Part shown: positions 31,009 through 50,079 of the stretch, one piece after another
Position numbering within the stretch: the first letter of the stretch is position 1
Layout of the letters: each line of letters starts with the position of its first letter
NCBI GenBank assembly: GCA_049517415.1
Contig: JBEKSC010000002.1
Span: 1-64,000, forward strand
Reading direction: 5' to 3'
DNA length: 64,000 bases
Origin: Candidatus Bathyarchaeia archaeon
Lineage (GTDB): Archaea > Thermoproteota > Bathyarchaeia > 40CM-2-53-6
Made by a program: the position numbers and the translations under genes
The notes under the pieces: model-generated
Seen by the model: only the letters and a program-made list of their open reading frames with translations
Told to the model about the DNA's origin: nothing
Database searches by the model: none

Positions 31009-31198
31009 TGGCGGGCCCGCCGGGATTTGAACCCGGGACCCTTCCCCAAGAAGGCTTCTCGGCCTGTTTCTTTTCGGGTGGCTTCCCATGGGTTCTAAAA
31101 GCCCAGAGGTAAAAGCATCACCGACACCTACCTGGCGTCTCCGATGCTCTACCTTTTCAGGATCCAATCTTGAAAGGATCTGACTGAGCTACGGGCCC
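31009..31198 (-). tRNA. tRNA-Lys(UUU) with four BHB introns (17/17a, 30/31, 37/38, 43/44)
   Basis: introns 31155-31181, 31117-31140, 31080-31109, 31042-31073; spliced 77 nt: GGGCCCG TA GCTC AGTCAGGTA GAGC A TCGGG CTTTTAA CCCGA GGGTC CCGGG TTCAAAT CCCGG CGGGCCC G CCA. Confidence 0.9.
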
Positions 31199-32421: not shown

Positions 32422-32481
32422 ACAGAAGACTTTGCCCTAGCGTCCTGGCCTCTCTTTATTGTAGGAGTGCCGAACGCGGGT

Positions 32482-32586
32482 TGGCGCCCTTCGCCAGGAG
32501 AAGGCTAGGCTGCTCCTTTGGGCGGGATTCGAACCCGCGTCGACGACGTGACAGGCCGTCATCCTAGACCACTGAACGACCAGGGC
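32482..32586 (-). tRNA. tRNA-Asp(GUC) with a 29-nt intron in the acceptor stem (68/69)
   Basis: intron 32490-32518; CC-CGCC-CA|A-AGGAG...CTCCT-GGCG-AA|G-GG is a complete hBHBh'; splicing restores CCAGGGC-G-CCA pairing with 5' GCCCTGG. Confidence 0.92.
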
Positions 32587-32717
32587 ATCGGCACCCCAGA
32601 AATCGCTGTGCCAGCTTAAAGCCTTGCTACAACATATACGCGGAACAGAAAAGACGCCAAGCATATCTTACGGTGGTCTTCGCTAGGATGTGACGGCATA
32701 CGGACTCATATTTGGTT

Positions 32718-38834: not shown

Positions 38835-38949
38835 TGGCGGGCCCGCGGGGATTCGAACCCCGGATCCCAGGCTTTCACCGCTTCCGCCCCGAAGGCTTAC
38901 ACGACTCTTACGCATCTCTGTGTCTTAATCCTGGCTCGACTACGGGCCC
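38835..38949 (-). tRNA. tRNA-Arg(UCG) with two introns (29/30, 37/38)
   Basis: introns 38897-38917 (ACAC/GTGT helix) and 38874-38888; spliced anticodon arm CAGGC CTTCGGA GCCTG; 79 nt mature. Confidence 0.9.
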
Positions 38950-41772: not shown

Positions 41773-42336
41773 ATGGAGAACAACCTCGGCTCAACACCTC
41801 AAGCTCCCGCGCAGGTCCAAGAAAAACCGCCGTTTACCCCTTGGAACGCGGTGTCCGGTCCGCGTTTGGTATACATACCCTATAAATCTGAACTCATGGA
41901 GTTAAGGGACCGAGGATTTGGCGACCTCCGGAAGGACAAGCTTGTCCTTTCTCCGTACGAATCATTCTATCTTCTAGAGAAACAGAAGATTAGAGTGTTT
42001 GCCAAGGATGCAGGCCGGGAGTTGGAGCTTCGAGACTTAGTCCAGAAGTATTCAGTTGACAAACCCGAGATCTGGATCAAGTACTTGGTGTACCGTGACC
42101 TACGGGAGCGTGGGTACATAGTCCGTGAGTCCACTAGGGCCTTCGATTTTGACATTTACGGAAAAGGGCCGCTGAGGCGTTTAATCTCAATCGTATACGA
42201 AGGCGGCGAAGCGAGCCTTCGTAAATTAAGTAAACTGCTTCAATATTCTGACAAAGAGAAGAAGGAGTTGATACTAGCCGTCGTTGATAGGCGGACCGAT
42301 ATTGTGTACTATACGTTGAGTTCGTTGAATGTCTAA
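41773..42336 (+). CDS. endA: tRNA splicing endonuclease subunit, probably structural (beta)
   Basis: LSPYESFYL, YLVYRDLRERGY, LILAVVD...IVYY; the catalytic His after DFxxY is not evident. Confidence 0.85.
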   Translation: MENNLGSTPQAPAQVQEKPPFTPWNAVSGPRLVYIPYKSELMELRDRGFGDLRKDKLVLSPYESFYLLEKQKIRVFAKDAGRELELRDLVQKYSVDKPEIWIKYLVYRDLRERGYIVRESTRAFDFDIYGKGPLRRLISIVYEGGEASLRKLSKLLQYSDKEKKELILAVVDRRTDIVYYTLSSLNV

Positions 42337-49678: not shown

Positions 49679-49827
49679 TGGCGGGCCCGCGGGGATTTGA
49701 ACCCCGGACCTCTGTACCAGTGCTGGGCTGGTTCTACAGCTTTTTCCGGTGTTCCTTAGGGGGTTCGGCAACAAATTCCGCTTTATGTGCGGAGCCTGCC
49801 GCTCTATCCAACCTGAGCTACGGGCCC
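49679..49827 (-). tRNA. tRNA-Arg(CCU) with three introns (30/31, 37/38, 45/46); C at position 33
   Basis: introns 49764-49795, 49742-49756, 49710-49733; spliced arm GCAGC CCCCTAA GCTGT AGGTC; 78 nt mature. Confidence 0.85.
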
Positions 49828-49917: not shown

Positions 49918-50079
49918 GCGGGGATTCCCGAGCCAGGTCAAAGGGGCAGGACCACCCGGCGCGGTGGGGCCACACTTAAGATCAGAACTTGCCTTGGGAG
50001 ATGAGGAGACATCCTGTGGCGTAGAGCCAGCGGATGGGCGCGTAAGCCTTCAGGGGTTCGAATCCCCTTCCCCGCACCA
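49918..50079 (+). tRNA. tRNA-Leu(UAA) with three introns (30/31, 37/38, variable-arm loop)
   Basis: introns 49951-49973, 49981-50010, 50025-50045; spliced CAGGA CTTAAGA TCCTG TGGCGTAGGCCTTC AGGGG TTCGAAT CCCCT TCCCCGC A CCA; 88 nt mature. Confidence 0.9.

Follow-up and report, generated by a model that had tools for sequence, protein, structure and literature searches.

The window analysed here, a stretch of 64,000 nt, carries on its minus strand a tRNA-Asp(GUC) gene which, intron included, extends from G1 at 32586 to 32482, and which has an HtrA-like protease and an AMP-binding enzyme encoded as its neighbours. The first 68 positions, including the anticodon arm, the T-arm and C66 C67 A68 (32521..32519, minus strand), make up a 5' exon (32519..32586, minus strand) that is assigned from the sequence, the ARAGORN and Rfam calls and the spliced cloverleaf, and reads GCCCUGG UC GUUC AGUGGUCUA GGAU G ACGGC CUGUCAC GUCGU CGAC GCGGG UUCGAAU CCCGC CCA. 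Between A68 and G69 lies a 29-nt insert, AAGGAGCAGCCUAGCCUUCUCCUGGCGAA (32490..32518, minus strand), identified as a BHB intron from the sequence, a BHB finder and comparison with congeners. The 3' exon, GGGCGCCA (32482..32489, minus strand), is only 8 nt long and supplies G69-C72, the discriminator G73 and an encoded CCA, as indicated by the sequence, by the spliced cloverleaf and by its contiguity in sister genera. On the minus strand the 3' part of the gene is GCGGG UUCGAAU CCCGC CCA / AAGGAGCAGCCUAGCCUUCUCCUGGCGAA / GGGCGCCA, then ACCCGCG, and the predicted spliced junction is ...CCCGCCCA/GGGCGCCA. The hexamer TTTAAG, read from the sequence 29-34 nt upstream of G1 (32615..32620, minus strand), is possibly an archaeal TATA-like box and would imply a short leader.

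The exon-intron borders can form a strict 3-4-3 hBHBh' motif, i.e. two 3-nt bulges separated by a 4-bp helix. The exon half (32521..32526, minus strand) contributes C61 C62 to the outer helix h (CC/GG, pairing with G70 G71) and C63 G64 C65 C66 to the central helix H (CGCC/GGCG, pairing with intron GGCG), the inner helix h' (AGGAG/CUCCU) closes a 12-nt loop, and the bulges are C67 A68|A and A A|G69 (CA|A and AA|G). The exon bases so used, C61-C66, double as the T-stem 3' strand and the first acceptor pair of the mature tRNA. An earlier note on this DNA had proposed a BHB intron at 68/69 of tRNA-Asp, with these helices and bulges and with a last exon of 8 nt. All three points agree with what is found here, in that the helices and bulges match the minus-strand sequence, 32489..32482 reads as G69-C72, G73 and CCA, and excision at the strict hBHBh' restores the cloverleaf.

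Evidence for an intron in the acceptor stem

When the 29 nt are removed by script, the ARAGORN score of the tRNA-Asp rises to 121.1, compared with 112.0 for the unspliced gene, and the acceptor stem has 7/7 pairs followed by G73-CCA, whereas the unspliced form has 3 mismatched pairs and no NCCA. Both ARAGORN and the Rfam tRNA model (43.4 bits) nonetheless call the tRNA-Asp unspliced, at 32512/32514..32587/32586, i.e. ending inside the insert; standard callers thus miss the intron and give a wrong 3' end, and genome annotations probably carry a defective-looking tRNA-Asp. That these unspliced calls are above threshold in both programs, together with the fact that spliced RNA was not seen, is what might be said for there being no intron at all, the gene ending at about 32512-32514 with a poor acceptor stem, or being a decaying pseudogene or insertion scar. 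Such a reading is scarcely credible, however, given the mismatched acceptor stem without NCCA that it entails, and given four further observations. In the genome, which is rated 100% complete, a single Asp(GUC) anticodon arm accompanied by a T-arm was detected, so that the gene must be functional; the insert has no paralogues elsewhere in the genome; a strict BHB is maintained through 20 different inner helices in five families; and the spliced form is contiguous in the DNA of relatives (see below).

A BHB-like motif by itself is not rare, since the BHB finder returned three strict ones in the 201 nt around the gene, two of them by chance; only the one at 68/69 restores a tRNA. On shuffling the 29-nt insert, a strict hBHBh' at the 68/69 junction arose in 62 of 200,000 trials. 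The combined sequence evidence makes it almost certain that the 68/69 insert is a real non-canonical archaeal BHB intron.

Two other types of insertion were considered and rejected. An integrative-element scar (attL/attR-type) is not indicated, as nothing upstream is repeated in the 8-nt 3' exon, there is no second copy in the genome, and the insert keeps its BHB structure across five families. With regard to the suggestion in the earlier note that the intron would disrupt the 3'-end sequence used by integrases as attB, a duplicated Asp 3' end was not found in 24 matching intron-less relatives. A self-splicing group I/II intron would need a ribozyme core of hundreds of nt, compared with the 29 nt present, and Rfam finds only the tRNA.

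Distribution and conservation in relatives

The insert is at the same place in all 22 other genomes of the window's own genus (g1), where it ranges in length from 24 to 32 nt and the loop varies in both sequence and length. In a scan of the class, the pattern for which demanded the exact exon sequence, such that misses do not amount to absences, 43 of 401 genomes gave a 68/69 match; the match is real in 42, all of them in the window's own order of the Bathyarchaeia. By group, the intron is present in 22/22 genomes of g1, in 5/5 of family f5, 3/4 of f7, 4/7 of f9 and 7/16 of f2. The match in another order (G341) is ascribed to chance, there being no BHB or tRNA context, as is one with a 15-nt gap in a bacterial MAG (L034), for the same reasons; a second match in G001 also looks like chance.

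The geometry of the motif is conserved. Among 37 unique 68/69 genes, 33 have a strict hBHBh' and the remaining 4 have an inner helix with 7 of 8 pairs, while H, h and both bulge lengths are invariant in all 37. The inner helices themselves take 20 distinct forms, e.g. AAGGGA/UCCCUU, AGAGACGUG/CACGUUUCU and AGGGG/CCCCU. Within g1 the structure is 97.3% paired and nearly invariant, with 1 pair changed on both sides, and covariation there is consequently weak (the score was reached by 33 of 500 shuffles); the compensatory evidence is that from comparison between families, which are themselves related, so that kin do not count as independent.

The predicted spliced 3' end, ...UUCGAAUCCCGCCC(A/U)GGGCGCCA, is contiguous in the DNA of 24 of 105 genomes of the order, as found with a search pattern that misses roughly a quarter of cases, having a three-letter code at its end. 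These genomes are distributed over g2 (17/22), g3 (2/3), g5 (3/10), f3 (1/2) and g24 (1/2).

Other introns are present in the same gene in some relatives. In the sister genus g5 (L024-L028) there is no 68/69 intron and a strict BHB intron of 22-29 nt is located at 53/54. The tRNA-Asp genes of f2 (L060, L029, L109 and L110) have three or four introns, the sites being 68/69, one following base 4, one in the region of the D-loop and one preceding the T-stem, with all four occupied in L060; in f9 (L064, L065 and L107) the intron at 68/69 is joined by one at 5/6 and one preceding the T-stem. In both families the 4/5 or 5/6 intron faces 68/69 directly across the acceptor helix, and leader bases are used in its BHB. 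In f9, where the insertion sites read GCCCU|GG and GCCCA|GG, the two acceptor-stem introns accordingly have a common core, CGCC...GGCGAA|GG; one possibility is that an intron moved from one of these similar sites to the other. The leaders of L059 and L061 (f7) and of L064 and L065 (f9) contain the acceptor 5' strand (GCCCUGG) in a spare copy; in f7 this copy is followed by GGCGAAGG and, lying before an intact gene, resembles what would remain of a 5/6 intron since lost.

Position of the splice junction

Within g1 the junction is flanked by an A on either side, such that from DNA the junction can also be read as 67/68. A real intron at 67/68, cut as CC|AA...GA|AGGGC, would give an identical mature sequence in this genus, and the repeated A means that the cut is not placeable from the DNA of g1 alone; the minimum free energy (MFE) structure, moreover, has its second bulge in the shifted register. 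BHB motifs are cleaved after the second base of each bulge, and applying this rule to the 3-4-3 geometry places the cut at 68/69. Family f2, with bulges CU|A and AC|G and with A5 opposite, fixes the junction at 68/69, since the arrangement CCU|A...AC|GGGC with A5 opposite is compatible with 68/69 only. A junction at 67/68 is therefore very improbable.

The 3' trailer and the predicted precursor fold

Directly after the CCA lies a trailer element, ACCCGCGUU (32473..32481, minus strand), recognised by folding and by trailer comparisons, which may serve as a surrogate T-stem strand, or 'clamp'. It is complementary to G46-U54; in the MFE register it pairs with A47-U55, and A76 joins the helix. Its partner, defined by the MFE structure and by pair counts, is accordingly G46 A47 C48 G49-G53 U54 U55 (32532..32541, minus strand), i.e. 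the variable region, the T-stem 5' strand and the first T-loop bases. In the pair counts for g1, 94.3% of the cells of this helix (helix 1) are paired.

The BHB uses the T-stem 3' strand and two acceptor bases, and so cannot coexist with the cloverleaf. When explicit conformers were evaluated, with the same D and anticodon arms in each, the BHB alone came to -13.2 kcal/mol and a cloverleaf-like conformer (T-arm, acceptor pairs 1-4/69-72 and an intron hairpin) to -24.8 kcal/mol, the BHB without clamp being worse by about 11.6 kcal/mol; the 3-4-3 BHB with clamp came to -29.0 kcal/mol. The MFE structure of a precursor ending at CCA is cloverleaf-like, with no BHB, and 8 nt of trailer are sufficient to switch the MFE structure of the full precursor to the BHB, enclosed by a 9-bp helix (-48.1, compared with -40.1 for the trailer-less form). 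In this MFE structure the second bulge is of 2 nt rather than 3, owing to a register shift by one base. When the 3' domains of 39 genes were folded with a 30-nt trailer, the central helix H appeared in the MFE structure of 27 and was missing from that of 12; with no trailer it appeared in none of the 39. Once the intron is spliced out, the clamp fold (-36.3 with an 8-nt trailer) and the trailer-less cloverleaf (-34.9) are predicted to be close in energy, so that the trailer could be released.

The trailer complement is found in all five intron-bearing families, at offsets of 0-15 nt, and its sequence is family-specific, tracking the local T-stem 5' strand, e.g. AAGCGGGUUC/GAAUCCGCUU in f9. When the trailer is paired with the T-stem 5' region, the longest possible helix has a median of 9 bp in 39 unique intron-bearing genes compared with 5 bp in 13 unique intron-less Asp genes, in none of which (0/13) is there a complement of at least 8 bp. 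Median duplex energies are -16.2 for intron-bearing (n = 38) and -6.2 for intron-less (n = 13) genes; for the other tRNA 3' ends of this genome the median is -8.75 (n = 38). Within g1 the trailer is preserved while leaders diverge, ACCCGCG being present in 19 of 21 distinct sequences; the exceptions are one ACUCGCG, which still pairs, and one ACCCGCU. In the congener G004, G49 is replaced by A and the trailer does not compensate. In RNA-library contigs of relatives the similarity extends over exactly 32586 to 32474, a faint pointer in the same direction.

A strong trailer complement is not unique to tRNA-Asp, as 4 of the 38 other tRNA 3' ends form duplexes of -15 or below with the trailers that follow them, and have no 3' acceptor intron. 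These four, at G000:C13 24621 (+), C7 29897 (+), C7 88511 (-) and C58 2513 (-), lie in the range -15 to -17 kcal/mol, one example being GAGGGUUC/GAACCCUC; they may represent more cases of trailer-assisted folding, or chance. Pairing between leader and trailer was also considered. Here the leader GGGGUGCCGA (32588..32597) and the trailer UCGGCACUCC (32468..32473) can form a 10-bp helix outside the clamp; in most congeners the helix is of 4-6 bp, a level reached by 40-100% of shuffles, and this pairing was rejected.

Splicing enzymes and RNA libraries

The genome, of 2.65 Mb in 59 contigs with 50% G+C and an estimated contamination of 6.9%, encodes two EndA paralogues, each with N and C Pfam domains, together with RtcB. 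The one in the window, of 187 aa (41773..42336, plus strand), is 9 kb from tRNA-Asp and in the alignment has no His at the catalytic position, as for a beta-like structural subunit. The other, of 190 aa, lies outside the window (G000:C10, L057 1213..1785) and is catalytic-like; among solved structures its nearest matches are crenarchaeal EndA chains (A. pernix 3P1Z_B, 7.5e-39, which aligns with it through the KPKPEQEF/KPRG-ADF loop and the IDHAPF histidine). The catalytic Tyr/His/Lys, the Crenarchaea-type loop and the subunit roles are here assigned provisionally to the two paralogues on the general pattern for such enzymes. By sequence, the pair fits the two-subunit, broad-specificity (alpha-beta)2 type.

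Six RNA runs hold a small share of the sequence. The contigs of four of these were compared and yielded 5 pieces from the locus, of which 3 run through the entire intron without splicing, 1 breaks off within the intron beside adapter sequence and 1 covers the 5' part only. No spliced joints were found in the contigs of these four runs, which may hold DNA; RNA libraries of this kind rarely contain mature tRNA. The contigs accordingly speak neither for transcription of the locus nor against splicing.

Proposed order of processing

The available evidence can be accommodated by the following pathway. The precursor would be transcribed with a 3' trailer, and ACCCGCGUU would pair with the T-stem 5' strand; the T-stem 3' strand, C61-C66, would so be freed to pair with the intron GGCG and with G70-G71, giving the 3-4-3 hBHBh'. 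A two-subunit EndA, probably (alpha-beta)2 with a Crenarchaea-type loop, would then cut after A68 and before G69, with the trailer helix tethering the tiny 3' exon, and the exons would be joined by RtcB. Formation of the T-arm and acceptor stem, and trimming of the ends, would have to await splicing. On the sequence and the energy models we infer that the trailer is transcribed, that it has a clamp and tether role, and that processing follows this order. As the acceptor/T minihelix would be absent before splicing, splicing would precede 3' trimming, and probably 5' trimming too. The earlier note had likewise supposed that the BHB competes with the T-stem and acceptor stem and that splicing comes before end maturation; the conformer energies bear out the first point, and the second gains support from the conserved trailer complement, which tips the fold to the BHB. 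The explanation as a whole, i.e. a functional tRNA-Asp(GUC) with a BHB intron at 68/69 and trailer-assisted splicing before end trimming, appears quite probable.

With respect to its individual parts, the models suggest that the trailer may well act as a clamp. A different possibility is that the intron is real and spliced by EndA, with the trailer playing no part in splicing, but being a relic of a T-arm 3'-half duplication (it resembles AAUCCCGC) or an element in termination or 3'-end processing. The trailer element is indeed nearly a copy of the T-loop/T-stem 3' strand, several orphan tRNA 3'-half copies are present in the genome, the trailer helix is conserved rather than covarying within the genus, and the four other tRNAs with trailers of similar strength show that such complementarity can occur away from a 3' acceptor intron. 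A relic would not, however, be expected to recur in all five intron-bearing families at differing offsets, with sequences following the local 5' strand, nor to be missing at a length of at least 8 bp from every one of the unique intron-less Asp genes, and it leaves the energetic disadvantage of the BHB in the trailer-less precursor without remedy. It is thus regarded as unlikely, and a clamp role for the trailer is preferred.

A more far-reaching proposal is advanced tentatively, with somewhat less conviction than the clamp role itself: the trailer could be an obligatory cis-acting splicing helper, which flips the precursor to the BHB and tethers the 8-nt exon, such that splicing must precede 3'-end processing, and acceptor-stem introns in archaea could generally need co-evolving transcribed flanks. 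Were this so, then, taken with the leader-assisted 4/5 and 5/6 introns of relatives, acceptor-stem introns would be seen to depend generally on such flanks. The competition between trailer and T-stem would constitute a simple RNA switch, and the processing order is directly testable, the design predicting splicing first.

Relationship to known tRNA introns

By every sequence test, the 68/69 intron is a rare-position member of the non-canonical archaeal BHB introns. As with those of Thermoproteales, other TACK archaea and ARMAN-2, it has a strict 3-4-3 hBHBh', half of which comes from the exon; it is likewise short (24-32 nt), and it occurs with an encoded, putatively two-subunit EndA and RtcB and with many interrupted tRNA genes. 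By contrast with them, it is located in the acceptor 3' strand and leaves a last exon of 8 nt, its BHB must displace both the T-stem and the acceptor stem, and it is accompanied by a conserved trailer complement. A literature search, the scope of which was outside the primary intron catalogues, gave nothing relevant on an intron between 68 and 69. Introns 'in the amino acid arm' are reportedly mentioned in the abstract of a 2003 paper by Marck and Grosjean. The non-canonical positions named in the part of the Yoshihisa 2014 review available to us (PMC4090602) are 20/21, 22/23, 25/26, 29/30, 30/31, 45/46, 53/54, 56/57 and 59/60, with 3/4 as the extreme; 68/69 is not among the positions named there. 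The program tRNAscan-SE 2.0 lengthens its candidates by 60 nt so as not to miss introns close to either end (PMC8450103, available portion); its supplement gave no match in the search made of it.

Two known types of arrangement, as described in the accessible portions of the sources, are the closest to that proposed here. The 3/4 introns of Thermoproteales are on the 5' acceptor side and their BHB uses the 5' leader (Sugahara 2008 as cited in PMC4090602). Like the tRNA-Asp intron, they lie inside the acceptor stem, need a flank for a splice-competent fold and imply splicing before trimming; in tRNA-Asp, by contrast, the flank is the 3' trailer, which is not part of the BHB and would sequester the competing T-stem strand. 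In split and permuted tRNAs (Nanoarchaeum, C. merolae and Thermofilum), the leader and trailer pair to build the BHB (PMC4090602, PMC3218864), such that, as proposed for tRNA-Asp, sequence outside the mature tRNA presents the splice sites to EndA. The tRNA-Asp gene differs, going by the same partial accounts, in being one contiguous gene of normal order, the trailer of which pairs with an internal exon strand and not with a leader. No mention of a trailer acting as a splicing clamp was found in the literature searched, and it is the conserved trailer complement that may be new.

The location of the intron implies that archaeal splicing tolerates an interruption in the part of a tRNA that is read by RNase P, RNase Z, the CCA enzyme and aspartyl-tRNA synthetase. 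This tolerance of an acceptor-stem intron appears to be stable throughout an order of archaea that are widespread in soil and peat, and the stretch itself is contained in peat and wetland metagenome runs.

Other tRNA genes and tRNA fragments in the genome

Very many tRNA genes of the genome are interrupted, and strict BHB removal followed by ARAGORN over 48 seed regions resolved only a minority. Among the T-arm-bearing candidates of the genome, tRNA-Asp is the only one with an interrupted 3' acceptor strand. Four more interrupted tRNA genes lie in the window, at 31009..31198 (-), 38835..38949 (-), 49679..49827 (-) and 49918..50079 (+), some of them at more than one place; for these genes ARAGORN gives isotypes and introns that look unreliable, and a 146-nt Rfam match at 49682..49827 scores 37.4 bits.

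The orphan or duplicated tRNA 3' halves referred to above each comprise a T-arm, an acceptor strand and NCCA, lack a 5' partner strand within 420 nt, and are located at C11 14757 and 15942, C7 29904 and 37452, C2 122864, C6 55873, C16 41022, C34 17365 and C35 4213. Some form pairs 1.2 or 7.5 kb apart, resembling att sites of integrated elements; there is no such duplicate for tRNA-Asp. An identical tRNA-Asp locus is present in L042, L044 and L050, MAGs labelled Acidiferrales, Acidoferrum and Methylomirabilota, probably as a result of bin contamination.
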